From an uncultured Gammaproteobacteria bacterium (lineage in GTDB: Bacteria; Patescibacteriota; Microgenomatia; JALYQM01), in NCBI GenBank assembly GCA_964403585.1, contig CAYOFQ010000001.1, forward strand, positions 648,630 to 712,629: DNA of 64,000 nt, in the 5' to 3' direction. This document shows positions 20,285-45,176 of this stretch, piece after piece (the stretch's first letter is position 1; each line of letters starts with the position of its first letter). Below the pieces are notes generated by a model that saw only the letters and a program-made list of their open reading frames with translations, made no database searches and was not told where the DNA came from. The position numbers and the translations under genes are program-made.

Positions 20285-22798
20285 TCACTCATTGCTACCT
20301 ATTAACTGGAGTTCTTTCCACACCAGCTGGTGAGATTCTTTACCTGCCGGATTAATTGAAATTTGCTGCGTTAATTCTCTCCAGCGGGAGTGCATCTCCA
20401 GTGGATGCGCGTACTGTTCGGCATTGGCATCAGTCATCTCTTCCGTGTAATGTATAGTTCTGCGACCCGTCGATTCAATGAGAATATTTTGCTTCTCAAA
20501 CATGCGATATGTGTTTTGAAAATTAATTACCGGCTCAGTCAGATACGCATACTCTTTAATCAAATCCCACAACACATCATTCACCGCTTCGGAAGTTTCC
20601 ACTACCGGCAGTCCTAAATTTTTTGCTTCAAAGTATACAATCGGATAATCGCTCGAAGGATAACTTTGAGTCAGTGTTTGAACAATCTGTGCTATTTGAG
20701 CATCGGTTCCAGGTGTTTTTCTCAGCTTTAAAAGATTGGTACAAATCCGTTGAACTAATGACAACTGTCGGTTTGCAGCTGCAGTAACTAACGGATGGAA
20801 TGTTTCAGGATCCTGGTTTACCACAGCAGTTGAGGCTTCTTTTTGTCTTGCCGTTGATTTAGACGGCAGCGGGTTTGATGCCTGGAAAATTTCGTTGAGC
20901 GGCACCGCTACTGATTCCTGGTCAAACGATTTGCTGAGCAATTTATGCGAGAACCAGGTGTCAACAGGTGAAAGAAATCCGAACGGATTCATAAGTATCG
21001 AATCACCCGATAACGCCATCATTGTTGTCGCAACCGAAGATTCTTCAGGTAAAATTACCGTCAACTCGTCACAAAACTCGCGAACCAATGTCGCCATTCT
21101 CCAGATAACAGTGCTGTCCGCATCCTGAATAATTGGCAACAAGTAGAGCGATTTCTTTTTTCCTAACTTTCGCAAGTGGCTATAGAGATAGCGCATATCC
21201 TCCATGGATACATAGGTATTGGCCGCATAATACACGAGAACTTTTCCGTGCAGAGATTCTTCCAGGCGTTCAATCGATTCCTGTGTTCGCTCCCAGGCAA
21301 CCGGAGGTTTGCGCGGCGGAAGTGACCCGCTTTGATTTTGAGTCTTTGCTTGTGGACGTTCGGCACGTTGTTCAGGGGCTGGGAGGCGCTGCTCGCGTTC
21401 TTGCTGACGTTGGTCCCGGTCCGGCTGGCGTTGCTCCCGTTCAGGTCGTTGTTCACGCTCCGGCGGACGCTGTTCGCGGTCTGCTCGTTGTTCACGATCT
21501 GCCTGCCGAGGCGGACGTTCTGATTGAGGCATCTCTTTTGGTGCTTCCGGTGTCGTAATATCATTCTCAAAGCGGGGCTCTTCCTGCCGTGCTCGTGGCG
21601 GTTCAGTCTGTATTTTTGGCGCGGGGGGTGCCACCGTTTTTTGTTCAGCACGAGGCATCTGTTCACGCTGTTTAGGCTGCTCAGGTTGCCGTGCAGGTTG
21701 TTGTTGCGACTGCTGCTTTGGTGCTGGCTGTTCCGCCAGCTGGGGAGCTGCTTGAGCCTTCGACTCTTTTTTGGGAGCTGCTGCTACCGGCGGTGCTGGT
21801 GGTTTCGACTGCTGCTGTTGTTGTTTTGGTTGTTGAGGTACCTGCTCAGGCGGCCGCTGCTGCTGTTGCTGAGGGGCTTTTGGCTGTTGCGTCTGCTGCT
21901 TCGGCTGCGGGGGTTGCTGGGGCTGTCGTGCCGGTGCGGGTTGGGGAACCGGTGGCATTTGCTGTGCAGGTTGATTTTGATTAAACGCAGCTTGAAGCGG
22001 CGGAATTGCCGGAGGGCGGCCCGGTGCCTGACCAGGCTGCATCTGTGCATTAAGTGGCGGCAATGACGGTACGCGCTGCGGTTCAGTAGCCTGCGGCATG
22101 GATGGCATCGTTAATGGCGGTAGTACGGGTGATTTATCGGCGACAGTACCGGAAGGGTCATCAAACTGTAAACCGCTGCTCTTCAGCAGATCGTCCAGAC
22201 TCGGTAACTCAAAGGGCACATTTTGCGGATTGGCCTGCTGTCCCTGGTTACTGAAAGGAAGCGGCGGAATCTGACTCTGCTGCGGTACCGGGTTTTCAAC
22301 AGGGGGACGTCCAGGTGGTTGGTTAGGCATAGGCGCTTGACGCTGCGGAGCTGCAGGCTGAGGTGCCGGCATTGGGGCCGGTGCCTCCGGAGCCGGTGCA
22401 GTTCCGTTTGTATAACTTTCCCAGGCTAAATCAGTGATTCTTTTGTAAATCAGGTCAAAGGGCGCTTTTCGCATCTCTCCTTTAAGCCGCTGATAGCTGG
22501 TCATCGTTACCGTATTGTTGCCCATCGCGTCAACGATACTCAAGGTAACATCGGGCACATTGGGAGACGATCCTGAATCATGAACAATATTCGGCAGCTG
22601 AAAAAAACCGACTTCCCTGGCATATTGCAGGACTTCGATAACTTTCTGTCGCTCAATCTGCCGTTCGACGATATCTGTATCAGACTCAAAAATGAGCATT
22701 CGCCCATTGTCGTAAATTTCAACATCCCCGGCACGGGAGTTTGGCGGCAACATACCACCACTCATTTTTACTAGAATAGCTAGATTTGAAACAGGCAT
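20285..22798 (-). CDS. Large (837 aa) protein: N-terminal globular region, very long P/Q/A-rich disordered segment with REQR/DREQR repeats, and a C-terminal ClpP/SDH-like (serine peptidase fold) domain
   Basis: Long, clean ORF. Low-complexity PQ-rich core (…PQPAPARQPQQPPQPKQQTQQPKAPQQQQQRPP…) and tandem DREQRADREQRPPEREQRPEREQRQPDRDQRQQEREQR. C-terminal region KVLVYYAANTYV…LPEESSVATTMMALSGDSILMNPFGFLSPVD resembles the SDH/ClpP-class serine peptidase fold. Confidence 0.7.
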   Translation of the reverse strand: MPVSNLAILVKMSGGMLPPNSRAGDVEIYDNGRMLIFESDTDIVERQIERQKVIEVLQYAREVGFFQLPNIVHDSGSSPNVPDVTLSIVDAMGNNTVTMTSYQRLKGEMRKAPFDLIYKRITDLAWESYTNGTAPAPEAPAPMPAPQPAAPQRQAPMPNQPPGRPPVENPVPQQSQIPPLPFSNQGQQANPQNVPFELPSLDDLLKSSGLQFDDPSGTVADKSPVLPPLTMPSMPQATEPQRVPSLPPLNAQMQPGQAPGRPPAIPPLQAAFNQNQPAQQMPPVPQPAPARQPQQPPQPKQQTQQPKAPQQQQQRPPEQVPQQPKQQQQQSKPPAPPVAAAPKKESKAQAAPQLAEQPAPKQQSQQQPARQPEQPKQREQMPRAEQKTVAPPAPKIQTEPPRARQEEPRFENDITTPEAPKEMPQSERPPRQADREQRADREQRPPEREQRPEREQRQPDRDQRQQEREQRLPAPEQRAERPQAKTQNQSGSLPPRKPPVAWERTQESIERLEESLHGKVLVYYAANTYVSMEDMRYLYSHLRKLGKKKSLYLLPIIQDADSTVIWRMATLVREFCDELTVILPEESSVATTMMALSGDSILMNPFGFLSPVDTWFSHKLLSKSFDQESVAVPLNEIFQASNPLPSKSTARQKEASTAVVNQDPETFHPLVTAAANRQLSLVQRICTNLLKLRKTPGTDAQIAQIVQTLTQSYPSSDYPIVYFEAKNLGLPVVETSEAVNDVLWDLIKEYAYLTEPVINFQNTYRMFEKQNILIESTGRRTIHYTEEMTDANAEQYAHPLEMHSRWRELTQQISINPAGKESHQLVWKELQLIGSNE

Positions 22799-24906: not shown

Positions 24907-25044
24907 ATGGCACATCTATTTACTACATTAGAAAACTCTCCGGCAATTCTTGTTTCGATTGTTTTCTTTATTGGGTGGACTGCCTCTTTGTGGGGTTTAC
25001 CGGCTCTGAGAGAATTACTCAAGGGAACCGCAGATTCCGAATAA
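24907..25044 (+). CDS. Possible small membrane peptide (45 aa), unannotated in the ORF track
   Basis: ATG at 24907 preceded by a canonical AGGAGG at a good distance (taggaggcctcATG). Encodes MAHLFTTLENSPAILVSIVFFIGWTASLWGLPALRELLKGTADSE, with one hydrophobic helix. Confidence 0.4.
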   Translation: MAHLFTTLENSPAILVSIVFFIGWTASLWGLPALRELLKGTADSE

Positions 25045-25100
25045 CCATTTACAGTCAATGGCATGTGCTCCTATAATAACTATACTTGGAGAGAGTAATC

Positions 25101-26762
25101 ATGTCTGAACTGCCCACAATCAAAGTAACGTATATCGTTGATACGCTTTTACCTGAAAAATGTCACGATCTCATTGCCATCCATGCTCTTTATGGCGAAG
25201 TTGATGATCAGGATGTCGGTTCATTTGCCGAAAGTCTGATCCTGAACCGCTGGACAAAAGAAGTTGTATCACGCGAAAAATATTCTCAATCCTCCCAGGT
25301 CATTACGCTTAATGAGCATAAGTATTCGGTACCTGTGTCACGATTTAGCCAGAGCCAAACCTTATTTCCTGAAAAAATACTTTCGGAAATACTTTCCGAG
25401 ACGGAAAAGATTCGTATGCATGACCCGCTCACTAAACAGGTGCTACTTATCGTTACGGGAGATAATGTCTTGCATAATGTTTCTATCCGGAAACAGAGCC
25501 ATCTGCCGATTATTCATTTTACTCGCAATACTAACCAGCCACAAAAAATTATCACCGTTCACCCCAACCATTCCGGGATAGCACACGGATTTTTCCATAA
25601 GATTTCGACAAAATCAGAACTTTCCCGGGTAAAGAGGGATACAATCATCGCAGCACCATATCGGATTCTCAAAGAGTACCGGGGCAAATGCAACGGGATA
25701 CTCATTCTAAAAGATCAAACACATTCGGGACCTTATACGATGCACTTCTCGGGCCCGCATCTGGTCGTGGAATCCGCAGATCTTAAAGACATTCCCGAAC
25801 GTACCTATATTTCGCTCAACTCATCCCGGGGTGAGATAGCCATTATTGGCAAAAACGCCCAACTGCGTTCGACTCAGCTGACAGTAACGCAGAAACGCTT
25901 AATCAGAAAAGTTGAAACGGAACAGGTAAAATTCTTCCGGGATCTTTCCGCCGGATCAAAAGGCGAGACACCTACCGTGTACGGGTATAGTTTACTTAAT
26001 CCCACCGAATTGGTCAGATCCGTGCTTGAGCGTCATCGGTCCGGAAGTTTTACGCAAGCACTGATCGATTATATAATGGGGGATTTAAGGCTAACCCCTC
26101 GTAAGCCGTTAGTATACCAGTCACTTTGTGTCAGTTTGGGAACCAAAAATGTATTTGGCAAACACGGTGGGCAGTATTTGCGGGAAAGTCCGGACTTCTT
26201 CCTTGAAGAGTTGGAAGCCCTGCACCAATTATTGTATGTCTATAATTTCTCCGATATAACCCTTACTATTCCGTTTGTAAGAACGGTAAAGGAGCTCGAA
26301 GATATTAAGAAAATAATTGCCAGGCATAAGCTGACGCGTTCGCATAAATTCAAGTTGTTTATTACTGTGCAGGTACCCGCGAACATTCTGCAGTTGAACG
26401 AATATCTCGATGCCGGTTTGGATGGCGTTATTATTGATCTGCAGTGTCTTACCGATCTTACCCTGGGAATTGATTCACATCTATTCAGGAAAGAGTACCG
26501 ACAGGCGGCCCACACATACGAGTTTATGGATGAGACATTTCGCGCTATGCGCAGTGGAGGTGTCTGGGAGATCGATGCGGAGCTGTTTAGACAAGTAAAA
26601 CTCGATGCTGCCATCAATCGAATTTTGGAACATACACGGGAAATCTGCCGCCGTCGTAAGACACCTGTTTATTTATATTTACCGGATACCTATGAAGAAG
26701 AAGTGGAGCAGGAGCTCCGTAAGCAAACTTTGCCTCATTCAGTAATTCCCGCTTATGCCTAA
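25101..26762 (+). CDS. PEP-utilizing enzyme family protein (Enzyme I / PEP synthase-like phosphohistidine + TIM-barrel domains), highly divergent
   Basis: The C-terminal roughly 300 aa align to the PEP-utilizing TIM-barrel (ITLTIPFVRTVKELEDIKKII...LFITVQVPANILQLNEYLDAGLDGVIIDLQCLTDLTLGIDSH; compare MIEVP...FFSIGTNDLTQ). The central segment DQTHSGPYTMHFSGPHLVVES...GEIAI resembles the mobile phosphohistidine domain (GGRTSHAAI...P.VVG...G.V). Several canonical catalytic positions appear substituted. ATG at 25101 has a GGAGAG SD; the track start at 25086 is TTG. Confidence 0.65.
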   Translation: MSELPTIKVTYIVDTLLPEKCHDLIAIHALYGEVDDQDVGSFAESLILNRWTKEVVSREKYSQSSQVITLNEHKYSVPVSRFSQSQTLFPEKILSEILSETEKIRMHDPLTKQVLLIVTGDNVLHNVSIRKQSHLPIIHFTRNTNQPQKIITVHPNHSGIAHGFFHKISTKSELSRVKRDTIIAAPYRILKEYRGKCNGILILKDQTHSGPYTMHFSGPHLVVESADLKDIPERTYISLNSSRGEIAIIGKNAQLRSTQLTVTQKRLIRKVETEQVKFFRDLSAGSKGETPTVYGYSLLNPTELVRSVLERHRSGSFTQALIDYIMGDLRLTPRKPLVYQSLCVSLGTKNVFGKHGGQYLRESPDFFLEELEALHQLLYVYNFSDITLTIPFVRTVKELEDIKKIIARHKLTRSHKFKLFITVQVPANILQLNEYLDAGLDGVIIDLQCLTDLTLGIDSHLFRKEYRQAAHTYEFMDETFRAMRSGGVWEIDAELFRQVKLDAAINRILEHTREICRRRKTPVYLYLPDTYEEEVEQELRKQTLPHSVIPAYA

Positions 26763-27894
26763 AATCGAAAAACTTACTGCTATAAAGATTTCGCACGACA
26801 ATACGTCTCTCCTTGGGATTCAGCTGAAGCTGGATAATGGTTTGGTAGTCCAGTCAAATTTTCCGGTGCAGGGTAATGACCCTACACATGATGTTACTAA
26901 GGCTATGACGGTTATCAATGACATAGTCGCGCAAATCGTCGAAGGACTTAATCCGCTGCGCCAAAAAGAACTTGATAAAATGATCACCGAATTAAGTGCA
27001 ATTCACGAACAGTCGGCACTACGGGCAAATATATCACTTGCTCTCTCTCTCACTATATTAAAAGCCGCCGCCGCACTTAATAATCTTGATCCGGTTACCT
27101 ATATACGTACAATATATGGTTTCGATCAAGGTAGAGAGCATCGGCCGATCCTGGTTTTTACGTGTATCAAAAATGAAGGAGGCACGGGAGCTTTTAAAGA
27201 GTTTTTCGTGATCCCTGCACGCAGTAAATCAACTTCGGAGTCATTGCTGATGTTCCGGGGTGTTGCTGCTGCATTAAAATCCGATACTCCGCTGATCACC
27301 ACTCACCATGAAATCATGAATACGGTGCAAATCGAATTATTGGAAAAACAGATACTCTGTCTGGGATTTTCATTGCACCATGATGTGTATCTCGGATTCA
27401 AGCCGGATCTCATCTATGACGAACAAAGAGGGTACCGTTGTACTGATATGCTGCAGGATGTCAGTGCCAACCAGATGGTTGAATATTACAAGGAACTCCA
27501 GACGTTATATTCACCATTAATTCAAGAAAATCTGTTTGCCTCTCATGACCTTATTTCGCTCGTAACACTCCATAAAGAGATTGGTGATCAAACAATACTC
27601 ACCGTGAGTTCCGAACGTGTCACCACGCCGGTTGAGTGCCGCAGGTATGCTGCTGCGCTGCCCACAGCGATGCTGAATTTAACGCATCAATCAGTTCCTT
27701 CGGTAACACAGTATATCGAGCTAATCGATGCCGCTAAAAAAGCTGATTGGAAGGTAATGATCGATACGAATGGCTGCAGTGATTATGGATTGTTATTCGC
27801 CCTCTCAGCTGCCGCTCAGGTGGACTTTATAAAAATGGATAGGTGTGACTTAGAAATAGAAAAGGAACTCTCATATGTTGGACAAAGCGATTAA
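26755..27894 (+). CDS. Enolase-family protein, divergent (probable pseudo-enolase lacking most catalytic residues)
   Basis: Clear enolase-specific similarity in the N-terminal and central regions (VTKAMTVINDIVAQIVEG...ANISLALSLTILKAAAALNNLDPVTYIRTIYG vs enolase VTKAVAAVNGPIAQALIG...GANAILAVSLANAKAAAA...PLYEHIAELNG, and ILVFTCIKNEGGTGAFKEFFVIPARSKSTSESLLMFRGVAAALK vs [30 protein letters not shown]...EVFHHLAKVLK). It is only 379 aa, the SGASTG loop is deleted, and the catalytic Glu/Lys/Asp positions appear replaced when compared by eye. Confidence 0.7.
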   Translation: MPKIEKLTAIKISHDNTSLLGIQLKLDNGLVVQSNFPVQGNDPTHDVTKAMTVINDIVAQIVEGLNPLRQKELDKMITELSAIHEQSALRANISLALSLTILKAAAALNNLDPVTYIRTIYGFDQGREHRPILVFTCIKNEGGTGAFKEFFVIPARSKSTSESLLMFRGVAAALKSDTPLITTHHEIMNTVQIELLEKQILCLGFSLHHDVYLGFKPDLIYDEQRGYRCTDMLQDVSANQMVEYYKELQTLYSPLIQENLFASHDLISLVTLHKEIGDQTILTVSSERVTTPVECRRYAAALPTAMLNLTHQSVPSVTQYIELIDAAKKADWKVMIDTNGCSDYGLLFALSAAAQVDFIKMDRCDLEIEKELSYVGQSD

Positions 27895-29452
27895 GCCGGT
27901 GGTACTGCTCATCTTTGATGGATTTGGTATCGCTCCGGCCAGCAACGGCAATGCGGTAACTCAGGCCAATATGCCTAACTTCCATAATTTTTCAGCACGG
28001 TTCCCGCACGGTCGGCTACAGTCAAGCGGAACCGCAGTTGGACTTACTCCCGGTGAAGTCGGTTCAACCGAGGTCGGTCACCTCAATATGGGCGCCGGGC
28101 GGGTTGTGTATCAGGATTTACCGCGGATCAATATGTCTATTTCCGAAGGAACATTTCTGACCATCCCGGCACTGGTATCTGCCGCAAATCACGCCCGCGA
28201 AAATAATTCTAATCTCCATTTAATGGGGCTGGTCAGTAACGGCAATGTGCATGCCTCTATTGAGCATCTCTATGCATTATTATGGTTTGCCCGGGCGCAG
28301 GGACTATCTCAAAATCAGGTAAAAATCCATGCTTTTTTGGATGGTCGGGATACTCCGCCAACATCGGGGAAAATGTTCCTGGCTCAAGTTGAAGAGAAGG
28401 CCAGTGCCCTACAAATTGGACAGATCGCCAGCATCGCCGGAAGATATTATGCCATGGATCGCGACAACCGATGGGAGCGTATCGAAAAAGCATACCGTGC
28501 ACTGGTTTTTGGTCAGGGTGACACAGCACATTCGGCTCAGGAGGCTATCCAAAACAGTTACAGTAAGAACGTCACTGATGAATTTGTCGTGCCAACCGTA
28601 ATCCTTGATGATCAGAACCAGCCTGTAGGCCAAATAAAAGATAACGATGCGGCGATTTTCTTCAACTTTCGTACCGACCGCCCGCGTGAGTTAACCAAGG
28701 CCATTGTTCTGGATAATTTTAATACTACCGATCGGCCCGCCTTTGACCGCGGAACTAAAGTAAGCAATCTGTTTTTCGTCACCATGACTGAATATGACCG
28801 GGAACTTACGGTGAATGGAATTGCCTTCCCACAGGAAAAAATTAACATGCCGTTGTGCCGTGTCCTTTCTAACCACGATTTACGGCATCTTCATATCGCC
28901 GAAACTGAAAAGGAACGATTTACGACATTCTTTTTCAATGGCATGCGCGAGGACCCGTTCCCGGGAGAGGAACGTATTTTTATTCCGTCACCCAAGATTC
29001 CGACATATGATTTAAAACCTGAAATGTCGAGTTTTGAAATTACCGACGCCTTTCTGAAAAAACTCGATCAGCAGTCTTTCGATTTTTGTGTTATCAACTT
29101 CGCTGCTTCCGACATGGTTGCCCATACCGGAAAGCTTGATGCCGCTATTAAAGCCTGCGAAGCCCTAGATATTTGCCTTGGAAAAATCGTCAATGCCGTT
29201 TTAAATGTTGGCGGAGCAGTGTTGCTGACAGCCGATCACGGCAACGTCGAAAAAATGATCGATGAAAACAATGTTCCGGATCCCGAACATACCAACAATC
29301 CTGTTCCGTTTTTAATTATGGCTAAAGAATTAAACTCACTCCAGCTCCCGTATGGAATTCTCGCCGATGTTGCTCCAACGATTTTGGCTTTAATGGGAGT
29401 TCCAAAGCCATCTGAAATGACCGGACGGAACTTGTTACCGAGCTCACATTAA
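27875..29452 (+). CDS. gpmI: 2,3-bisphosphoglycerate-independent phosphoglycerate mutase (iPGM)
   Basis: Near-canonical iPGM: PVVLLIFDGFG, GRYYAMDRDNRWERIEKAY, NFRTDRPRE, FAASDMVAHTG, LLTADHGN. The nucleophile context reads GSTEVGH rather than GNSEVGH, placing Thr at the Ser position. Confidence 0.88.
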   Translation: MLDKAIKPVVLLIFDGFGIAPASNGNAVTQANMPNFHNFSARFPHGRLQSSGTAVGLTPGEVGSTEVGHLNMGAGRVVYQDLPRINMSISEGTFLTIPALVSAANHARENNSNLHLMGLVSNGNVHASIEHLYALLWFARAQGLSQNQVKIHAFLDGRDTPPTSGKMFLAQVEEKASALQIGQIASIAGRYYAMDRDNRWERIEKAYRALVFGQGDTAHSAQEAIQNSYSKNVTDEFVVPTVILDDQNQPVGQIKDNDAAIFFNFRTDRPRELTKAIVLDNFNTTDRPAFDRGTKVSNLFFVTMTEYDRELTVNGIAFPQEKINMPLCRVLSNHDLRHLHIAETEKERFTTFFFNGMREDPFPGEERIFIPSPKIPTYDLKPEMSSFEITDAFLKKLDQQSFDFCVINFAASDMVAHTGKLDAAIKACEALDICLGKIVNAVLNVGGAVLLTADHGNVEKMIDENNVPDPEHTNNPVPFLIMAKELNSLQLPYGILADVAPTILALMGVPKPSEMTGRNLLPSSH

Positions 29453-29806
29453 ACTTGACAAATTTTTACAGAACAGTCACAGTGGAGTCACAACTCTATG
29501 ATAGACTATCTGCTCAAACTCTATTATTTTGCAACGAGTTCCTGCATTTATTGTGGAGGATTTGTTGAAGAATACAGTTGGAAAAAAGCATTTTGTATCG
29601 ATTGTGATAAACGAAACTAGTTATGATAAAATCTACTGCCAATATCATTCTGTTTATCGTCCTGCTCCCAATGGTTTTATTACTGCGTTTTGCAGTAGCT
29701 CAACAGGAAGAATAATAACAAGTGTTATATAAAAAGAGCCCTCATTTCTGAGAGCTCTTGGTGACTGTTACTCACTTGGCAGCAAAGTAATTGAGTCTTC
29801 AAAATT

Positions 29807-35722: not shown

Positions 35723-35812
35723 GCATTATGAAGGTATCCACGCTCATTACATCCAAGAATATCTAACATCTGTGGTGTGGACTTTCGGTTTTTATTGGGT
35801 TACAATAGAAAG

Positions 35813-37813
35813 ATGGACGAAAATACATTTCATCTTGAATCTGAGTTCAAACCAACAGGCGACCAGCCGCTGGCGATTGAAAAATTGACTAAAGGAGTTC
35901 TCGCTGGAGACAAAAATCAAACATTGTTAGGTGTTACCGGAAGTGGAAAAACATTCTCAATTGCGAACGTAATTCAGCAGGTTCAAAAGCCAACCCTGGT
36001 AATCTCTCATAACAAAACGCTGGCTGCACAACTGTATCAGGAATTCCGAGACTTTTTTCCGAAGAATGCTGTAGAGTATTTTGTTTCGTACTACGACTAT
36101 TATCAGCCGGAGGCCTATGTCCCGCAAACCGATACTTATATTGAAAAAGAAACCGAAATCAACGAAGAAATAGATAAACTTCGTCTTTCTGCCACAACGT
36201 CATTACTAACCCGTAGAGATGTAATTGTCGTTGCATCAGTCTCGTGTATCTATAACATCGGTTCACCAAAAGAATATCAGGAAGCCATTCTTACTGCGCA
36301 TGTCGGGCAATTTACCAACATGGATTTAGCCATGAAGGTGCTTTCCCGCATGTCGTATGTTCGCAATGATTTCGAGTTTCAACGCGGCATGTACCGCCGC
36401 AGAGGTGATACGCTGGATGTGTATCCGTCCTACACCGACTATTTTGTCCGTATCGAATTTCTCGGTGACCAAATCGACCGGATCAGTCAAATTGATCCGA
36501 TGAGTGGCGAAATATTGGACCGGCCAAAAATGATTTCAGTATATCCGGCTAAACACTATGTTACTCCACTGGATAAAATGCAGTCGGCAATCGAAGAAAT
36601 CCGTCGGGATCTCGAAATACGCGTTGAACAGCTGAAAGCCGAAGGGAAAACAATGGAGGCCTACCGCCTTAACCAGCGTACGAATTATGATCTGGAGATT
36701 ATTCAGGAAATCGGTTACTGCAACGGTATCGAAAACTATTCCCGCTATTTTGACGGCCGTCCTCCGGGAGCCGCGCCAAATTCGTTACTTGAATTCTTTC
36801 CCAAGGATTATCTCCTGGTTATCGATGAATCGCACATTACCATCCCGCAGATTCGCGGCATGTACAACGGCGACCAGGCACGTAAGAAGACGCTTGTCGA
36901 TTTCGGTTTCCGCTTACCGGCAGCCATGGATAACCGCCCACTCAAATTTGATGAATTTTTACGCCGGATTAATCAGACCATCTATGTATCTGCAACACCG
37001 AATGAGTATGAACTAAGTCTTTCTGATCAGGTCGTCGAACAACTTATCCGGCCAACCGGTATTGTTGACCCGGAAATAGAAGTACGACCAACCGAAGGTC
37101 AAATCAAAGACTTAATGAATGAAATTATTATTCGGGCTGAACGCAAAGAAAAGGTACTCGTTACAACCTTAACTAAGCGCATGTCCGAAGATCTCACGAC
37201 CTTCCTAACTGAGAAAAAAGTAAAAGTAGCTTATTTGCACTCCGAAGTCGAAACATTAGACCGAAGCGACATTCTGGATGATCTCCGCCGGGGAACCTAT
37301 GACGTGGTCGTCGGGGTAAACCTGCTTCGTGAGGGTCTCGATTTGCCCGAAGTCTCGCTGGTCGCGATTCTTGACGCCGACAAGGAAGGATTTTTACGCT
37401 CACATACATCACTAGTCCAAACCATGGGGCGTGCCGCCCGCCATATTAACGGTAGGGTTATTATGTATGCCGATACCATGACCAAGTCAATGAAATCTTC
37501 AATTGATGAAGTTAACCGCCGGCGCGAAGTGCAATTGGCATACAATCAGGAACACAATATTACGCCTCAACAGATTTCCAAAAAAATTCGTGAAAAGCTG
37601 ATCGACCGGATAGTCGAGGAGGAACCTGAGAAGGTCAAAGAGAATCGAGCAGAGGCTGTATATAACCAGGCGATAGCCGGTGAGTTAATACCACAGGACA
37701 AAACCAAGCTCGTAACCTATCTGACAAAGAAGATGAAGGAAGCTGCTAAAGAGTTTCGGTTTGAAGAAGCAGCGGTAATTCGGGATAAAATAGCCAAGCT
37801 CAGGGATCAGTAA
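35813..37813 (+). CDS. uvrB: Excinuclease ABC subunit B
   Basis: Helicase motifs (GVTGSGKT), a beta-hairpin region and a C-terminal UvrB/UvrC interaction motif (EFRFEEAAVIRDKI). The track start at 35777 is upstream; the first ATG giving the canonical N-terminus is at 35813. Confidence 0.93.
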   Translation: MDENTFHLESEFKPTGDQPLAIEKLTKGVLAGDKNQTLLGVTGSGKTFSIANVIQQVQKPTLVISHNKTLAAQLYQEFRDFFPKNAVEYFVSYYDYYQPEAYVPQTDTYIEKETEINEEIDKLRLSATTSLLTRRDVIVVASVSCIYNIGSPKEYQEAILTAHVGQFTNMDLAMKVLSRMSYVRNDFEFQRGMYRRRGDTLDVYPSYTDYFVRIEFLGDQIDRISQIDPMSGEILDRPKMISVYPAKHYVTPLDKMQSAIEEIRRDLEIRVEQLKAEGKTMEAYRLNQRTNYDLEIIQEIGYCNGIENYSRYFDGRPPGAAPNSLLEFFPKDYLLVIDESHITIPQIRGMYNGDQARKKTLVDFGFRLPAAMDNRPLKFDEFLRRINQTIYVSATPNEYELSLSDQVVEQLIRPTGIVDPEIEVRPTEGQIKDLMNEIIIRAERKEKVLVTTLTKRMSEDLTTFLTEKKVKVAYLHSEVETLDRSDILDDLRRGTYDVVVGVNLLREGLDLPEVSLVAILDADKEGFLRSHTSLVQTMGRAARHINGRVIMYADTMTKSMKSSIDEVNRRREVQLAYNQEHNITPQQISKKIREKLIDRIVEEEPEKVKENRAEAVYNQAIAGELIPQDKTKLVTYLTKKMKEAAKEFRFEEAAVIRDKIAKLRDQ

Positions 37814-37820
37814 TACCTGA

Positions 37821-38789
37821 CTACTGCACCATAAATATTCTCAAAATATCGTTTGACGCATTTGTATGCTTATGCGGAGCGCCGCCTGAAGCTTCCGGAA
37901 AGGCGGCATCACCAGTATCATACTGTGCAGTCATATCGGTTCCACATCCTGAAACAATCGAGGGCTTCCCTCCGGAATGAAACTTAATATAGTCGGTAAT
38001 GTTATAGAGGTGTCGTCCGTCGGTTTTATCGGTATAGACGACGTAGCAATCAGTTTCCCTATTGTGAAGCTTCGCAATCTCAAGCAGTGGGTCAGGTGTC
38101 GGCGTTGGTACCGGCGTAGGGCTTGGGGTGCGAGTCGGAGTAGGGGAGGGAGTTGGTGATACTTCCGGGCCGGGTACAATCGCAACAATATACATTGAGT
38201 AGGCCGCAGCCTGAGCATCGGAAGCTGCTCCAAAAGTAATAGTCCCTGCAGGTGCTGTCCTGGAATAAAAATCGTAAATACCAATCAATCCGAGCTCATT
38301 TTTCCGTTTTGCGTACTGATTAATATGTGAAAGATCATCGTTGGTCGAGCGCGAATAGCCGTTTTTTATCCAATTGGGTACCTGATTAATACTCGGGATG
38401 TGCCGGGTAAGAATATAGACTGTCGATTGGACTGCTGTCGTTACCGACCAACTCAACGTGGTCGAATCTTTTATTTCGGAATTGGGTGTCAATACAAAGG
38501 CAGCGTTATTAATTGACTGGTCAGGCAGGAAGAAAAGAAAGCGGCTATCCGTAGAATACATTTGAACATTATTCTCAATACAGCCTTTGTTGAATGTGTA
38601 CCCGGCAGGACTGTTTATTGAAAAAAATGAGGTTGAACATCCAATCTGAGCATCGGTGTCGTCGGTATGGTTAAGTTCAGATTTGGTTATCCTTGTTGAG
38701 GCGTAGACTCCAAAAGTCAGGATACTCCCAACCAGCACTACCACGAGTAACTCGTTCATATAAGCATTTTTCATTTTCATCGGTTGCAT
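37821..38789 (-). CDS. Secreted/TM-anchored hypothetical protein; paralog of 18226-19809, with a C-terminal cytochrome-b5-like segment
   Basis: The N-terminal 200 aa align with ORF 18226-19809 (WSVTTAVQSTVYILTRHI...NWIKNGYSRSTNDDLSHINQYAKRKNELGLIGIYDFYSR...YSMYIVAIVPGPE), followed by a TPSPTPTRTPSPTPVPTPTPDP linker. The C-terminus LEIAKLHNRETDCYVVYTDKTDGRHLYNITDYIKFHSGG resembles the cytochrome b5 heme-binding motif (...HPGG). Confidence 0.7.
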   Translation of the reverse strand: MQPMKMKNAYMNELLVVVLVGSILTFGVYASTRITKSELNHTDDTDAQIGCSTSFFSINSPAGYTFNKGCIENNVQMYSTDSRFLFFLPDQSINNAAFVLTPNSEIKDSTTLSWSVTTAVQSTVYILTRHIPSINQVPNWIKNGYSRSTNDDLSHINQYAKRKNELGLIGIYDFYSRTAPAGTITFGAASDAQAAAYSMYIVAIVPGPEVSPTPSPTPTRTPSPTPVPTPTPDPLLEIAKLHNRETDCYVVYTDKTDGRHLYNITDYIKFHSGGKPSIVSGCGTDMTAQYDTGDAAFPEASGGAPHKHTNASNDILRIFMVQ

Positions 38790-38970
38790 TACTTTTATAA
38801 TTGCCTAATTTAATGCAAAGCGCAAGAGTAAAATGTACATCAAACAGAAAAAGACAACATTCTTAGTCTGGAAATTTCTTTACAAACATGATACACTGAT
38901 TAACGCTTTATACCCGAAAATTACCAGAAAGCATCATACACTATTACTGTAAATCCTAAGGAGATTCTGC

Positions 38971-41900
38971 ATGTCCAGAGACCTCATTTCAATCAAAGGT
39001 GCACGCGAGAACAATCTTAAAAACGTCGATATAGAAATACCCAAGCATAAATTGGTAGTCTTTACCGGACTGTCAGGATCAGGAAAGTCCTCTCTTGCTT
39101 TTGATACTATTTATGCCGAAGGCCAGCGCCGGTATGTTGAATCACTTTCATCGTATGCACGTCAATTTTTAGGAGTAATGGATAAACCTGATGCAGATTA
39201 TATTGAAGGACTATCTCCGGCAATCTCTATCGATCAGAAAGCAGCTTCACATAACCCTCGTTCCACTGTGGGAACTACAACCGAAATATATGATTACCTC
39301 CGTCTACTGTTCGCCCGTGTCGGCCACCCACATTGTCCGAAATGCGGACGGGAAATTCAACACATGTCGATCGATCAGATCGTCGATTCAGCCTTCCGCT
39401 TAGCCGGAGATATAATGTCCAAGAACAAACAAGTTTCTTTGCGGGGAGCACGGCTTTTCATATTGTCTCCTGTCGTCAAAGAAAGAAAAGGCGAGTTTAG
39501 TAACTTGTTCTCTGACCTCCGCAAAAAAGGTTTTGCCCGAGCACGTATCGATGGCACCGTTCGTGACTTATCTGACGATTTCGGACTGATTAAAACCAAC
39601 AAACACTCCATCGATGCACTGGTTGACCGTTTAGTAATCTCACAGGAAATTGTTGACTTATTCACCAAACAAGCCGCTGAAGGTAAAGACGCTTTGTCTC
39701 TAGAAGACTTTGAAAAGTTACAAAGCATCCGTACCCGATTGTCACAGTCACTGGAACAAGCACTCAAGCTTTCCGAAGGAACTGCCATTGTAGCTGAAAT
39801 TCAAGACGATGACATTAATTTTCCTCAGGACCCAAAGAAAATGGAAGATCATCTCTTTTCGGAAAATTTTGCCTGTCCGTTTGACAACATTTCGTTACCC
39901 GAGATTGAACCGCGTACATTCTCTTTTAATTCACCACAGGGAGCCTGCCCTAACTGTGCGGGCTTAGGAACAGAATTAAAAATTGATGCGGATCTGATCT
40001 TGAATCCCAATCTCAGTATTTCCGAAGGGGGAATTCTACCGTGGAATCGACTCTCCAGCACTGAAACCTGGTTTACCAGAATTATAAATGAAGTAGCTAC
40101 TGCTAAAGGTTTTTCAGTAAAAACACCGATCAAGGACTTATCTGAAGAGGCAAAAAATATTCTGCTCAACGGTACCGGAACCGAAACATTTTTTGTGAAA
40201 GGTGAAAACCGGCAGGGAAGACAAACCGGATTCGAGACAACCTTTGAAGGCGTAATCCCGAATCTGTTACGCCGCTATAAAGAAACAGAATCCGATTATG
40301 TGCGCGGTGAAATTGAAAAATACATGCGCTCGGAATTATGTCCTGTTTGTGAAGGTAAACGCTTAAAGCCGGAGGCACTTTCGGTGACAATCAACAAAGA
40401 TTCAATTTATGATATCACCAATAATTCAATTAAAAATGCCTTAACCTGGGTACATTCTCTCCAAAACGGCAAGATTCTATCCGATCGTGAAACGGTAATC
40501 GGCAAACCTATTCTCAAAGAAATTGTCAACCGACTTCAGTTCTTAATTGATGTCGGCTTAGACTACTTAACTCTCAACCGTACTTCAGCAACACTCGCCG
40601 GTGGAGAAGCCCAGCGTATCAGATTGGCATCACAAATCGGCTCGGGATTAACCGGCGTTCTCTATGTGCTCGACGAGCCGTCTATCGGGTTACACCAGCG
40701 CGATAACACCAAACTTATTAAAACATTGAAGCGTTTACGCGACCTTGGTAACAGTGTCATCGTTGTTGAGCACGATGAAGAAACAATGGAAGACTCCGAT
40801 TACATATTTGATTTTGGACCGGGGGCAGGTGAACATGGAGGACAAATTATTGCCCATGGAACGCCTGAGGAAATTAAGAGCAATAAAAAATCAATCACTG
40901 GTCAATATTTATCGGGTAAAAAAGTTGTGGAAGTAGATAAAAACTTCTCAGTGAAAGAACTGATGGATTTTGATCAGCGAAGGCGTAAGAAAGTCAATGA
41001 AGCGATTGCCGAAGTAAAAATACTCGGAGCCCGGGAACATAATCTAAAAGGGATTGATGTTTCCATCCCACTGAGTAAATTTGTCTGCGTTACCGGCGTT
41101 TCCGGATCAGGTAAGTCCACTTTGGTCCACGACATATTATATAAATCGCTATCCGAACATTTCTTTCATTCCAAAGATAAACCGGGCAAACATGATACGA
41201 TCGTCGGACTGGAGGCACTGGATAAATGCGTCATGATCGACCAGTCGCCAATTGGCCGAACGCCTCGTTCAAATCCTGCAACGTATACCGGTGCGTTTAC
41301 CTATATTCGTGAGCTTTTCGCCCGGACGACTGAAGCACAGGTTCGCGGATATGGACCGGGACGGTTCAGTTTTAATGTCAAAGGCGGCCGCTGCGAAGTA
41401 TGCCAGGGAGACGGCATGATCAAAATCGAAATGCAGTTTCTTCCCGATGTGTATGTAAATTGTGACGCCTGTGAGGGGAAGCGGTATAACCGTGAAGCAC
41501 TGGAAGTGCATTATCGCGGCAAAAACATCTTTGACGTGTTAAACATGACAGTCGAGGAAGGCCTCGATTTCTTCGGAAGCATCCCGGCATTACGCAATAA
41601 ACTTGAGACCTTATACGATGTCGGTCTTGGGTATATTCGTTTGGGACAGCCCGCAACCCAATTGTCCGGAGGAGAAGCCCAACGTATTAAGCTCGCCTCG
41701 GAGTTATCAAAACGACCGACCGGCCATACCATGTACATTCTCGATGAACCGACCACCGGGTTGCACTTTGCGGATATTTCGCGCTTGTTATCAATTCTGC
41801 GACGTTTAGTGAACCACGGAAATACTGTTCTGGTTATCGAGCATAATTTGGATGTGATCAAAAACGCCGACTGGCTTATCGATCTTGGCCCGGAAGGTGG

Positions 41901-42015
41901 CGATGGTGGTGGTACTTTAGTCGCCGAAGGAGCACCTGAACTAATCGCAGAAGTAAAGGAAAGTTATACAGGCAAATACCTGAAAAAAATCTTCGACAAG
42001 CAAAAGAACGCCTGA
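38971..42015 (+). CDS. uvrA: Excinuclease ABC subunit A
   Basis: Two ABC ATPase modules ([12 protein letters not shown]; [11 protein letters not shown]), zinc-finger Cys clusters and signature motifs ([12 protein letters not shown]; [12 protein letters not shown]), at a length of 1014 aa. Confidence 0.95.
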
Positions 42016-42036
42016 CTTGTGCTATAGTAACTAGAG

Positions 42037-43851
42037 ATGAAAAATATACTTTTAGGCTTAATCCTGGTTACTATAGTAATCGTCGTGCCAAGAAGTGCTT
42101 ATGGCGCCTCAGAATTTACTGAAAAAGATGTGGTAACCTATACTATTCAGGACGATGGTACTACTCACGTTACCTACGACATAAAAATCACCAACAATAC
42201 CGCTGAATATTACACCAACAAATATTCACTCGGTATCGGCTCGCAAAAAATCAGCAACCTAAAAGCAACAGACAAATCCAGAACAATCAAAACCGAATTA
42301 AAACAGGATGCCACAACGTCAGCAATCCACCTTATGTTCGGAGATCAAATAGTAGGGAAAAATACCACCCGAAGTTTTTCTATTGAATACGATTCCACCT
42401 CGGTAACACAGAAGTTAGGAACCTCCTGGAATATTACCATACCAAGAATATTAGGTACGGATTTGGCCGAATATAGTGTTAAAGTTCTGGTGCCGGAATC
42501 ATTTGGTGCCGCCTCAACCGTATACCCAAAACCTGCACAACTGAACAAAAAAAGTGCCAGTACCGAGTATCAATTCACTACCGAGCAGCTGAAAAAGTCG
42601 GGAATAACCATGAACTTTGGAGACAAACAAGTCTATAACATGGGCTTAACATATCACCTTGCTAATTCGCAAAGTAACAGTGTCTACACGGAAATCGCGT
42701 TGCCAATGAATACCGCCTATCAGACTATCGTCTATGATTCGATTAGTCCTAAGCCAACTTCGGTGGTTGTGGATGAAGACGGCAATTACATCGCTCGGTA
42801 TATTCTCAAGCCAAAAGAAGACATCCAGGTGCAGGTCATTGCCAAAGCGATCGTATTTCTTAATAAACAACATACCGAAAAAATAACCGGAGCGGAGAGG
42901 AGCATGTATACGCAGAAACAACCGTATTGGGAAACCGACGATGAACACATTGCTTCTCTGGCAGCAAGCCTGAAAACACCGGAAAATATCTATCGCTATG
43001 TTGTAACCGGCTTGACTTACAATAGTTCAAAAGTAAATAACAATTTTGATCGCATCGGAGCAAAAAAAATTCTCAGTAGCCCGGAAAATAGTGTGTGCAT
43101 GGAGTTTACCGACCTCTTCGTGGCGATTGCGCGGGCAGCCGGAATCCCTGCCCGGGAAATTAACGGATTTGCCTATACCAATGATACAAAACTCCGACCA
43201 GCTTCACTTTCTCAGGATACTCTACACGCCTGGCCGGAGTATTATGATGAAGAACGAGGATGGATACAAGTAGATCCAACCTGGGAAAATACGACCAACG
43301 GGGTAAACTATTTTAATACATTTGACTTAAACCATATCGCCTTTGTCCGAAAGGGCAAAAGTAGTATTACGCCCTATCCGGCAGGTGCCTATAAAGGAAG
43401 CTACGATAACACCCGTGATGTCGTCATCAACTTCACGGCGGAGGAGCCGGAAATACAAAATACGATAGATACCGAAATTGAAATGTCGCAAAGTTTTGTG
43501 GCCGGGGTCACGCCAACGTGGAAGTACACCATGGTTAATAAAGGAAATACGGGGTATGTGGAACTAGTCACTGAAGAACAGGTGATTGGCGGTATACGAA
43601 CTGAGGAACAAATTCCCGTTGTCGTCCCACCATTTGGTTCGATTACCATTTCGCGAAGCGGAACTAAAACAAATTATTTGGATTCGCTCGATATCCTCCT
43701 TGCATTAAAAGTTGCGGAGAAGATTGAGTCAAAAGAGAGTAGGATTATCCCGTTTTATCGTCATTCGGTTACGCTGATCGGGTTTGCTTATTTATTAGGT
43801 GTCCCAGCCGTGGCGTTATTTTCTTATAAAGTGCTGCACAAAAATAAATAA
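42037..43851 (+). CDS. Secreted transglutaminase-like (papain-fold) domain protein with C-terminal TM anchor
   Basis: Signal peptide and a transglutaminase-core-like segment (ENSVCMEFTDLFVAIARAAGIPAREINGFAY...HAWPEYYDEERGWIQVDPT), with a C-terminal hydrophobic helix. Confidence 0.65.
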   Translation: MKNILLGLILVTIVIVVPRSAYGASEFTEKDVVTYTIQDDGTTHVTYDIKITNNTAEYYTNKYSLGIGSQKISNLKATDKSRTIKTELKQDATTSAIHLMFGDQIVGKNTTRSFSIEYDSTSVTQKLGTSWNITIPRILGTDLAEYSVKVLVPESFGAASTVYPKPAQLNKKSASTEYQFTTEQLKKSGITMNFGDKQVYNMGLTYHLANSQSNSVYTEIALPMNTAYQTIVYDSISPKPTSVVVDEDGNYIARYILKPKEDIQVQVIAKAIVFLNKQHTEKITGAERSMYTQKQPYWETDDEHIASLAASLKTPENIYRYVVTGLTYNSSKVNNNFDRIGAKKILSSPENSVCMEFTDLFVAIARAAGIPAREINGFAYTNDTKLRPASLSQDTLHAWPEYYDEERGWIQVDPTWENTTNGVNYFNTFDLNHIAFVRKGKSSITPYPAGAYKGSYDNTRDVVINFTAEEPEIQNTIDTEIEMSQSFVAGVTPTWKYTMVNKGNTGYVELVTEEQVIGGIRTEEQIPVVVPPFGSITISRSGTKTNYLDSLDILLALKVAEKIESKESRIIPFYRHSVTLIGFAYLLGVPAVALFSYKVLHKNK

Positions 43852-43865
43852 GTTATAATATATTC

Positions 43866-45176
43866 ATGCTTGAAGTCAAATCCCAACTCAAAGAAACACT
43901 TTCAACACTTCCGGAGAAACCCGGAGTGTATTTGTATCATGATTCAGATAACCGCATTATTTATGTTGGCAAAGCAGTGAACCTAAAAAACCGCGTACGA
44001 TCATATTTCCAGGCACCCGAAAAACTTGGACCTAAAACAGCCGCATTAGTTTCAAACATTGACCGAATAGAATATTGGGAAGTCGATAGCGAAATTGAAG
44101 CCTTGTTACTTGAAGCAGAGCTTATCAAACTCCATAAGCCGCGGTACAACATCATCCTAAAAGACGATAAATCCTATTTATATATCAAAATTGCTACCAA
44201 TGAAGATATTCCAAATGTCACAACTTCGCGTCGGGAAAACATCAAAGGTGTCACTTATTTCGGTCCATTCCCCAGTGCCCAAACCGCCAAAAGTGTTTTA
44301 AAAACTATCAGACGCGTATTTCACTATTGTTCGTGTAAAGCCGGGCAAAATACACAAAAGCCGTGTTTTTATAATCACATTAATCTCTGTCCTGCTCCAC
44401 GGGCAGCTGAGATATCCGAAAAAGAGTATCGCGATGAATACCTTAAACAGATTATCCTGTTCCTCAGTGGAAAAAAGAAGCAGTTGATTAAAGAACTGGA
44501 AAAAGAGATGAATGTTGCTTCCGAAGAACTAAACTTTGAAGAAGCTGCCAAAATCAAGAAAAAAATCGACGATTTACTCTATATCACACAATCTTTCCGC
44601 AAACCTGAGGACTATATTGAAAATCCAAATCTGGTTGAAGATCAGCGTACCAAAACACTCGAGGAACTTCGTCACCACGTAGCACAGTATTTACCATTAA
44701 AGAATCTCCCGCAACGCATCGAATGTTATGACATCTCTAATATTCAAGGTAAACAGGCAGTAGGCGCCATGGTCGTGTTTACCAATGCCGAACCCGACAA
44801 ACGCGAATATCGCAAGTTTAAAATCCGCGTTAAGGATACTCCGGATGATTTCACCATGATGTCCGAAATGCTCCGCCGCCGTTTTAATAACGACTGGGCC
44901 ACCCCCGATTTACTCGTCATTGACGGAGGAAAAGGGCAGTTACAAGCCGCACTGGACACCTTAAATGCCGCCGGAGTGACCATTCCGGTAATTTCCCTTG
45001 CAAAAAGATTCGAAGAGATATACCTTAAAGTAGGAAATGATTTCGAAAAAATAGTTCTGCCGCGTAATGCGAAAGCATTACAATTACTGCAACACATGCG
45101 CGACGAAGCCCACCGTTTTGGAATCACCTTCCACCGATCATTGCGAAGTAAGAAATTGTTATCTGAAAAAGTATAG
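43866..45176 (+). CDS. uvrC: Excinuclease ABC subunit C, short form (GIY-YIG + UvrBC + RNaseH-like domains; no C-terminal HhH2)
   Basis: GIY-YIG motif (GVYLYHDSDNRIIYVGKAVNLKNRVRSYF), a UVR-like motif (NFEEAAKIKKKIDDL) and an endonuclease-V-like region (ECYDISNIQGKQAVGAMVVF...YRKFKIR). It is 436 aa against roughly 600 aa for typical UvrC. Confidence 0.8.
   Translation: MLEVKSQLKETLSTLPEKPGVYLYHDSDNRIIYVGKAVNLKNRVRSYFQAPEKLGPKTAALVSNIDRIEYWEVDSEIEALLLEAELIKLHKPRYNIILKDDKSYLYIKIATNEDIPNVTTSRRENIKGVTYFGPFPSAQTAKSVLKTIRRVFHYCSCKAGQNTQKPCFYNHINLCPAPRAAEISEKEYRDEYLKQIILFLSGKKKQLIKELEKEMNVASEELNFEEAAKIKKKIDDLLYITQSFRKPEDYIENPNLVEDQRTKTLEELRHHVAQYLPLKNLPQRIECYDISNIQGKQAVGAMVVFTNAEPDKREYRKFKIRVKDTPDDFTMMSEMLRRRFNNDWATPDLLVIDGGKGQLQAALDTLNAAGVTIPVISLAKRFEEIYLKVGNDFEKIVLPRNAKALQLLQHMRDEAHRFGITFHRSLRSKKLLSEKV

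Follow-up and report, generated by a model that had tools for sequence, protein, structure and literature searches.

What does a cell keep when it keeps two enzymes of lower glycolysis that no longer carry their catalytic residues? This question is raised by three adjacent genes in a 64,000-nucleotide stretch of bacterial DNA (contig CAYOFQ010000001.1 of assembly GCA_964403585.1), referred to below as the window. The genes run in the same direction and encode, in order, a homologue of phosphoenolpyruvate (PEP) synthase (open reading frame 1, ORF1), a protein with the enolase fold (ORF2) and a 2,3-bisphosphoglycerate-independent phosphoglycerate mutase (iPGM, GpmI; ORF3). Pseudoenzymes are homologues of enzymes that have kept the fold and lost the catalytic residues, and that are still under selection. 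In its operational form, namely a homologue without catalytic residues that is under purifying selection, this definition applies to both ORF1 and ORF2. The pair illustrates how pseudoenzymes form when a standard operon undergoes reductive evolution; it belongs to a single small clade of Patescibacteria (Candidate Phyla Radiation, CPR). The explanation that we favour, with moderate confidence, is that ORF1 and ORF2 form a co-dependent pair of pseudoenzymes, which arose in situ from PpsA and Eno and has a non-catalytic binding or scaffold role, possibly together with two small proteins encoded beside it, next to an active and independent GpmI. In the following, related loci are numbered with the prefix L and individual homologues with the prefix P.

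ORF2, an enolase fold without the enolase active site

The structure predicted for ORF2 with AF2 has the two-domain enolase fold (predicted local distance difference test score, pLDDT, 93.1; predicted TM score, pTM, 0.92). Its Foldseek matches are bacterial enolases, with a TM score of 0.84 and an E value of 1e-21 at only 15-20% identity, and comparison of the ORF2 family with 16 canonical enolases gives an hhalign probability of 100 (E 8e-46). The protein nevertheless stays far below the enolase equivalog cutoff (TIGR01060, 68.4 bits versus 300). The Pfam domains Enolase_N and Enolase_C (PF03952 and PF00113) pass their gathering thresholds narrowly, with 38.5 versus 35 and 26.3 versus 21.5 bits.

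The catalytic positions were mapped with hhalign and hmmalign, which are concordant except in the E211 loop; they are given here in yeast numbering, with E. coli numbers in brackets. A column mapping from MAFFT only was set aside for D246 (HMMER shifted by two residues), where hhalign and hmmalign both give K216. Three positions are kept: E168 as E149, E295 (E290) as E258 and K396 (K393) as K360. The remaining positions are altered. The S39 loop is shortened by a deletion of 16 residues, and the E211 (E209) loop, DEGGFAP, is deleted by 7 residues in the hhalign mapping; hmmalign places H186 and E187 of the window protein at D210 and E211, where other core members have gaps. H159 is replaced by T144, Q167 by K148, and H373 and R374 by D337 and T338. 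D246 corresponds to K216, with K or R in the core clade and N in distant members. D320 (D317) corresponds to S286, with S, T, V or P in the family, and K345 (K342) to T310, a position that varies between T, N, Q, Y and D. Consequently, the three-carboxylate Mg site (D246, E295 and D320; D246, E290 and D317 in E. coli) is absent as such and reads K216, E258 and S286, and the catalytic base K345, the acid E211 and the mobile S39 loop are likewise missing. With the catalytic acid and base, the two mobile loops and two of the three Mg ligands gone, enolase chemistry in ORF2 is not credible judging by these residues.

Most polar positions of the former pocket are conserved as a charged network (K148, E149, K216, E258, E287, D337 and K360), while T310 varies. 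This network looks like a former metal site that has been filled by side chains. The best conserved part of ORF2 is formed by the helices of the N-terminal domain, residues 46-105.

Many enolase-like proteins of 390-440 residues with at least one altered catalytic position also occur in other metagenomic sequences (P0021, P0022, P0026, P0029, P0031, P0035, P0036, P0038 and others), and P0035 shares with ORF2 the replacement of D246 by K. Degenerate enolases may be more widespread than the clade described here.

ORF1, a truncated PEP synthase with a remodelled pocket

The ORF1 family matches PEP synthases with an hhalign probability of 99.65 (E 4.6e-25), with residues 9-459 of ORF1 aligned to residues 194-670 of PEP synthase. 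The AF2 model (pLDDT 74.5) has the PEP synthase 2OLS as its top Foldseek match (E 1e-14), and further matches include PPDKs and Enzyme I. Three regions can be recognized: the tail of an ATP-grasp domain (approximately residues 1-132), a swivel domain that lacks the catalytic His (approximately 150-250) and a TIM barrel of the PEP-binding type with a remodelled pocket (approximately 290-530).

A complete N-terminal ATP-grasp domain is not found in ORF1. Approximately 190 residues are absent, there is no PPDK_N match, and nothing in ORF1 corresponds to the VGGK..NLGE and RSSA..ED regions. The phospho-histidine motif GGxTSHAA is also missing: the swivel fold aligns, and a variable loop stands in its place. 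The loop corresponding to H189 is not conserved within the family, and the orthologue P0006 has no His there. Nine mapped positions that bind PEP or Mg or donate the proton are replaced. In E. coli Enzyme I numbering, assigned here by motif, the changes in the hhalign mapping are R296 to N300, R332 to Q340, D335 to C343, R358 to Q358, E431 to Q424, N454 to Q448, D455 to C449 and R465 to S459. The ninth, C502 to Y526, lies past the end of the hhalign alignment and was assigned by eye. Among the replaced residues are the three Arg that bind the PEP phosphate, the two Mg ligands and the Cys that donates the proton. ORF1 scores only 51-54 bits against curated PEP synthase equivalogs, TIGR01418 among them, for which the cutoffs are 598-740 bits, and its PF02896 score of 22.6 bits is to be compared with a gathering threshold of 22.8.

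A full-length PEP synthase-like protein of 730 residues with degenerate catalytic motifs is encoded in another lineage (P0010; L017, positions 3969-6161). It has no GGxTSHAA motif, shows R replaced by K or Q and E by N, and has DYYD in place of GSND; the contig ends directly after the gene. P0010 may represent an earlier stage of PEP synthase decay.

The residue losses in both proteins bear on the simplest alternative, namely ordinary lower glycolysis or gluconeogenesis in which ORF1 and ORF2 still work as PEP synthase and enolase despite strong divergence. The gene order is that of the canonical operon of relatives, homologues of ORF2 carry the JGI label 'enolase', and both Pfam enolase domains exceed their thresholds, all of which would be expected of active enzymes. 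However, ORF1 would have to work without approximately 190 residues of the ATP-grasp domain, the phospho-histidine, the PEP-phosphate Arg residues, the Mg ligands and the Cys. ORF2 would have to do so without K345 and the two loops (S39 and E211), and with a Lys for the Mg ligand D246. Their NCBIfam scores of 51-68 bits also fall well short of cutoffs of 300-740. On these comparisons, this alternative appears extremely improbable and already close to refuted, and from the mapped residues we infer that both proteins have lost their activity.

ORF3, a canonical phosphoglycerate mutase

ORF3 exceeds the GpmI equivalog cutoff by a wide margin (TIGR01307, 614.5 bits versus 330.65) and contains both iPGM domains, iPGM_N (PF06415, 268 bits) and Metalloenzyme (PF01676, 218.6 bits). 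Against the Bacillus stearothermophilus iPGM 1EJJ it scores 547 bits. In the alignment with 1EJJ, whose residue numbers are used here, ORF3 keeps the equivalents of the Mn and substrate residues D12, D403, H407, D444, H445, H462, H123, R153, R191, R261, R264 and K336. The sole deviation is at the nucleophile, where Ser62 is replaced by Thr65, so that the motif reads GSTEVGH instead of GNSEVGH. A Thr nucleophile as a sign of functional shift was considered and rejected, since Thr is also found in 38 of 102 outgroup iPGMs. ORF3 is thus probably an active canonical iPGM.

Each of the 16 full-length iPGMs from the clade with dead or decayed ppsA and eno has the GSTEVGH motif (region of ORF3 residues 64-65), and the clade is referred to here by this motif. 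Its iPGMs have five specific substitutions at positions conserved in outgroups (P58T, Q338H, V350T, Y402F and N411A/C), none of which is at a catalytic or substrate position listed above.

The original prediction, drawn from the DNA sequence only, had described the three genes as a protein resembling PEP synthase or Enzyme I, an enolase-like protein that appeared to have lost its catalytic loop and several Mg or catalytic residues, and a near-canonical iPGM, with two of the three proteins catalytically altered. All of these assignments agree with the profile, structure and residue comparisons given above. The alignment that it proposed as a check confirmed that catalytic residues are lost in ORF1 and ORF2.

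Origin of the operon and its decay in related lineages

Related Patescibacteria carry a canonical ppsA-eno-gpmI operon (L015 and L016, with eno-gpmI in GCA_023485445.1), which has the same genes, order, orientation and tight spacing as the triad of the window. In L015 (Logan SRR13394437), a 762-residue PEP synthase with GGRTSHAA, LLRAEF, YRATD, GYRGCYR, EIPS, GTND and CGQ is followed by enolase and gpmI; this enolase retains the catalytic residues except for E211, which is D. In L016 (Logan SRR22388250), where the contig end leaves only the C-terminus of a PEP synthase, eno is canonical and precedes gpmI; lexA and a transglutaminase gene are close by, which is also the case in the window. In L014, gpmI is likewise preceded by a canonical eno. 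The iPGMs of the canonical operons are 54-56% identical to ORF3. In contrast to the window, where both proteins of the pair are gutted and ORF1 is approximately 200 residues shorter, the canonical operon encodes a full-length PEP synthase with all motifs and a catalytic enolase.

The L015 enolase (positions 4542-5759) is 35% identical to that of L014 and has SDDGG in place of GDEGG; it is divergent but, by its residues, probably active.

Since relatives carry the canonical operon, it is most parsimonious that the order ppsA-eno-gpmI is ancestral and was inherited with its tight junctions rather than newly assembled. The original prediction had regarded this arrangement in pathway order as undescribed. 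The search of related genomes that it suggested gave the opposite result, with the order being standard in relatives and canonical motifs present in L014, L015 and L016.

In a neighbour-joining tree of iPGMs, the 16 GSTEVGH sequences form a clade with a bootstrap of 100, in which the L012 group branches off first, followed by the L010 group, and the crown (bootstrap 84) consists of the full-length triads. Among the more distant iPGM relatives, full-length triads are found in the context of P0170 (iPGM 69% identical to ORF3, preceded by proteins of 543 residues and of 393 residues, the latter labelled 'Enolase_C') and in L011 (P0172; iPGM 64%, preceded by 554 and 389 residues). In L012 (P0179; iPGM 59%), the gene is preceded by a 395-residue homologue of ORF1 and a 191-residue protein that corresponds only to the C-terminal half of ORF2. 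In L010 (P0176; 'Patescibacteria group bacterium', GCA_026004375.1; iPGM 62%), only a 150-residue remnant of the ORF1 C-terminus is found upstream and there is no ORF2. A single loss of PEP synthase and enolase catalysis at the base of the GSTEVGH clade, after which the dead pair stayed full-length, with later truncation or loss occurring independently in two lineages, would be most parsimonious.

When L010 showed a gpmI without ORF2, a foreign ORF1-ORF2 cassette inserted upstream of gpmI was considered. It was rejected because the 150-residue ORF of L010 is a remnant of ORF1 and because the outgroups have the canonical ppsA-eno-gpmI order.

The iPGM of L010 keeps its place and sequence in the absence of ORF2, and therefore the triad is not an obligate three-part machine. 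This observation does not support the three-part module that had originally been proposed. The broader idea of a repurposed module instead of ordinary glycolysis held in its negative part, given two dead enzymes; repurposing itself is plausible in light of the purifying selection and the co-occurring small ORFs described in the following.

The synteny shared among the related loci comprises an SDH-protease-like gene, a 219-residue ORF, DUF192, the triad, lexA on the opposite strand, uvrB and uvrA. It is found in L002, L003, L004 and L007 ('MAG: bacterium MDV bin63'), in L005, L006 and L008 (GCA_964535655.1), in a JGI contig with P0002 and P0004, and in a Logan contig with P0005 and P0168. Two records call for a comment on their labels. 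L005 and L008 (GCA_964535655.1, contig CAZHTP010000002.1) are titled 'uncultured Gammaproteobacteria bacterium'; their gene order and 83% iPGM identity fit the Patescibacteria-like clade, and the label is probably wrong. L002 and L011 are both in GCA_030154765.1, with iPGMs approximately 65% identical. Because one assembly holds two versions of the triad, this 'MAG' mixes at least two related organisms.

Selection and co-divergence

In comparisons between the window, L002 and L005, ORF1 and ORF2 show a proportion of nonsynonymous differences (pN) of 0.33-0.36, and ORF3 one of 0.10-0.11. Synonymous sites are saturated, with a proportion of differences (pS) of 0.74-0.85, so that pN is compared with pS only and a proper dN/dS is not computable. 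The pair evolves approximately 3-4 times faster than the iPGM. Across the core clade, ORF3 is 77-83% identical, whereas ORF1 and ORF2 are 46-52% identical. The frames of ORF1 and ORF2 are intact in at least 6 lineages, the iPGMs of which are only 64-83% identical. Owing to the low pN relative to saturated pS and to the intact frames, ORF1 and ORF2 are under purifying selection.

ORF1 and ORF2 also change together. They diverge equally, with identities of 47/47, 48/46 and 26/25%, and they shrink jointly, to 395 plus 191 residues in L012 and to 150 residues plus nothing in L010. The equal divergence, the joint shrinkage and the unaffected iPGM argue that the two proteins work with each other and are not needed by the iPGM.

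These data also bear on the possibility that the pair consists of functionless relics heading for loss, whose frames stay open only as carriers of a promoter and of translational coupling for the essential gpmI. The decay series in sister lineages, from full length through 395 plus 191 residues to a 150-residue remnant, is what such relics would leave behind, and their faster evolution points in the same direction. Only one promoter-like site reaches 11 of 12 consensus matches, and it is upstream of ORF1; ORF2 and ORF3 overlap by 20 nucleotides in the window and in L002, by 11 in L005 and by 29 in the context of P0170. However, coupling would not hold the amino acid sequence, and full-length proteins with a pN of approximately 0.35 at saturated pS, blocks of 68-79% identity and frames intact across lineages with such divergent iPGMs are difficult to reconcile with it. 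Moreover, L010 and the outgroups indicate that gpmI can be expressed without the dead pair. We regard this possibility as quite unlikely.

Conservation of the former pockets

In ORF1, conservation is concentrated in the barrel half where the PEP/Mg site used to be (residues 346-480), with 68-79% identity in the core clade versus 20-50% elsewhere. The replaced pocket residues N300, Q340, C343, Q358, Q424, Q448, C449, S459 and Y526 are invariant in the core clade. Outside of it the pocket differs: the residues Q, Q, Q, Q, C, D, D and Y of the core clade correspond to E, K, S, K, K, E, H and K in L011.

Such a pocket may indicate neofunctionalized enzymes, in which ORF1, ORF2 or both would carry out a novel reaction, probably independent of metal, on a metabolite related to glycolysis. 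Purifying selection on both proteins would be expected in this case. Conservation in ORF1 is highest where the PEP pocket used to be, and the Q, N and C that replace the original residues there are invariant, with two Cys in place of two Asp. ORF2 keeps the equivalents of E168, E295 and K396 and has gained K148 and K216 in its pocket, and a highly conserved, tightly coupled iPGM follows downstream. If this explanation were true, the 2-phosphoglycerate made by the iPGM would have a new fate in a lineage without enolase. However, the replaced pocket residues of ORF1 are not family-wide, as L011 illustrates, and those of ORF2 differ in P0015 and P0016 at the D246, D320, K345 and H373 positions, so that no common new set of catalytic residues is visible. 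All chemistry of the enolase superfamily depends on the metal site, which ORF2 does not have. The pair has also been truncated or lost in two lineages that kept the iPGM. New catalysis by the pair therefore seems unlikely, though it deserves more than passing consideration.

Small ORFs flanking the triad

Two small ORFs flank the triad (Table 1). A homologue of the 45-residue ORF is located directly upstream of the ORF1 homologue in L002, L003, L004 and L007, in L005, L006 and L008, and in L011 and L012 (tblastn E 1e-16 to 3e-6). In L002-L008, L011 and L012, gpmI is closely followed by a homologue of the 40-residue ORF (tblastn E 7e-13 to 3e-9). In tblastn searches, neither has a homologue in L010 or in the outgroups with canonical operons (L014-L016 for the 45-residue ORF), and neither matched a Pfam family. 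Canonical operons thus differ from the window, which has both. Every sequenced locus with ORF1 and ORF2 homologues carries the two small ORFs, including the truncated L012, and this co-occurrence suggests that they may belong to the module.

Taken one step further, the dead PEP synthase, the dead enolase and the 45- and 40-residue peptides would constitute a new non-catalytic module, such as a metabolite-sensing, regulatory or structural complex, which this Patescibacteria clade would have made from what was left of lower glycolysis and kept beside an active iPGM. This specific proposal is offered only tentatively.

Proposed history and role of the pair

The co-dependent pseudoenzyme pair that we favour can be described as a sequence of steps. 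The starting point would be an ordinary ppsA-eno-gpmI operon of Patescibacteria, of which the triad is the presumed in-situ descendant. At the base of the GSTEVGH clade, the PEP synthase would have lost its ATP-binding half, the phospho-histidine and the residues that bind PEP and Mg. The enolase would have lost both catalytic loops, the catalytic base and acid and part of the Mg site, acquiring a Lys at one Mg-ligand position. Both proteins would have kept their folds, with purifying selection holding them as a co-dependent pair. They may then act non-catalytically, most likely as an oligomeric complex for binding or as a scaffold, and the two flanking mini-proteins may take part in this role. 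GpmI, in contrast to the pair, would have stayed an active and independently needed enzyme.

Two observations weigh against this explanation. The first is the invariance of the remodelled ORF1 pocket within the core clade, which could equally mark a new ligand site or an active site. The second is the fate of the pair in L012 and L010: because these two lineages have truncated or lost it and keep the iPGM, any role of ORF1 and ORF2 is not essential.

Gene junctions, expression signals and neighbourhood

The coordinates of the features are collected in Table 1. As the original prediction had stated, the three genes are consecutive and overlap by 8 and 20 nucleotides, which can be read directly from the DNA: the ORF1/ORF2 overlap is ATGCCTAA and the ORF2/ORF3 overlap is ATGTTGGACAAAGCGATTAA. 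The ATG of ORF1 has the ribosome-binding site GGAGAGAG located 5 nucleotides upstream, and an in-frame TTG is found further upstream at 25086. ORF1 orthologues all begin at the equivalent Met (MSELP). Based on the GGAGAGAG site and on these orthologue starts, the ATG at 25101 is taken as the start of ORF1. Promoter-like sites are not enriched across the region (15 found versus 12.6 expected), and the site at 25048-25077 is to be read as a consensus match only.

Table 1. Positions of the triad and of other features in the window
Feature	Position	Strand	Description
ORF1	25101-26762	+	553 residues from ATG; pseudoenzyme derived from PEP synthase
ORF2	26755-27894	+	379 residues; enolase-fold pseudoenzyme
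ORF3	27875-29452	+	525 residues; 2,3-bisphosphoglycerate-independent phosphoglycerate mutase (GpmI)
45-residue small ORF	24907-25044	+	One hydrophobic stretch, putative single-pass membrane peptide MAHLFTTLENSPAILVSIVFFIGWTASLWGLPALRELLKGTADSE; own GGAGG ribosome-binding site
Promoter-like site	25048-25077	+	TTTACA-18 nucleotides-TATAAT; 11/12 consensus matches; 24 nucleotides upstream of the ORF1 start codon
40-residue small ORF	29498-29620	+	CxxC...CxxC, putative zinc-ribbon mini-protein MIDYLLKLYYFATSSCIYCGGFVEEYSWKKAFCIDCDKRN
837-residue protein	20285-22798	-	Very long Pro/Gln-rich low-complexity middle; weak C-terminal match to a ClpP-like SDH protease
uvrB, uvrA, uvrC	35777-45176		Within approximately 10 kb, with a cytochrome-b5-domain gene and a transglutaminase-like gene between

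The remainder of the window encodes housekeeping functions, including gatA/B, dnaE, rnhB, bipA, uvrA/B/C, lexA, clpP and a gene of the IMPDH family. It also contains a radical-SAM gene of the methylthiotransferase type, a cluster for sugar-nucleotide biosynthesis and five tRNAs. No second, canonical enolase or PEP synthase was found within the 64-kb window. The gene lexA adjoins gpmI, and the DNA-repair neighbourhood (uvrB, uvrA, uvrC and lexA) is syntenic clade-wide. The Pro/Gln-rich protein of 837 residues is encoded at a syntenic position, upstream of the cluster, in every related locus.

Comparison with known systems and rarity

Fast-evolving enolase paralogues that remained in situ are known from Methanococci and Thermococci, where they keep the ancestral gene context and have undergone an inferred shift of function (Makarova et al. 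2015, PMC4390880). They resemble ORF2 in the retained context, the much faster evolution and the inferred departure from glycolysis (PMC4390880). However, the archaeal paralogues are located in the ribosomal superoperon, beside a second, slowly evolving glycolytic enolase, whereas in the window the neighbouring PEP synthase is dead too. ORF2 does not belong to the archaeal paralogue family NF006223/PRK08350, against which it scores 20.6 bits versus a cutoff of 624.

In CPR bacteria, enolase is reported to have a patchy distribution and to be missing in some lineages, and PEP synthase to be a possible substitute for pyruvate kinase; divergent enzymes could not be excluded by the authors (Jaffe et al. 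2020, PMC7304191). The GSTEVGH clade fits this patchy pattern (PMC7304191), with the difference that the survey scored presence or absence by hidden Markov model thresholds. In the window, the genes are conserved yet catalytically dead, a state that a survey of this type would score as 'present' or miss.

Limited literature searches returned no description of a paired dead PEP synthase and enolase. Two consecutive enzymes of a pathway that died together and were kept paired in their original operon are, to our knowledge, not represented by any described case.

No library family covers ORF1 or ORF2. A k-mer protein search with ORF2 returned only the protein itself and one relative, and an exhaustive HMMER search, which covered 1.84 billion representatives, yielded 3 relatives below 1e-30. 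A scan of GTDB (185,579 species genomes) gave 2 loci, and two scans of JGI metagenomes, with the ORF2 and ORF1 family alignments, gave no confirmed relatives. Because relatives are so few in the exhaustive search, the ORF2 family is considered rare. Membership in an anti-phage defence system was also considered and was rejected, as none of the three proteins matched a PADLOC-DB defence model at E <= 0.01.

Implications

The combination of a JGI 'enolase' label and passing Pfam domains means that metabolic reconstructions of CPR genomes of this kind would wrongly close lower glycolysis. Surveys of CPR metabolism based on presence and absence (e.g. PMC7304191) are blind to enzymes that are present but dead.

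The related loci also form a natural series of decay. It starts with canonical enzymes, passes through dead proteins that are still full-length and under selection, and continues with truncated forms until at most a remnant is left; the third gene of the operon is untouched at every stage. This series is useful for studying the origin of pseudoenzymes in reductive genomes. If these genomes contain no other enolase, the conserved iPGM raises the question of what becomes of 2-phosphoglycerate in these putative episymbionts.

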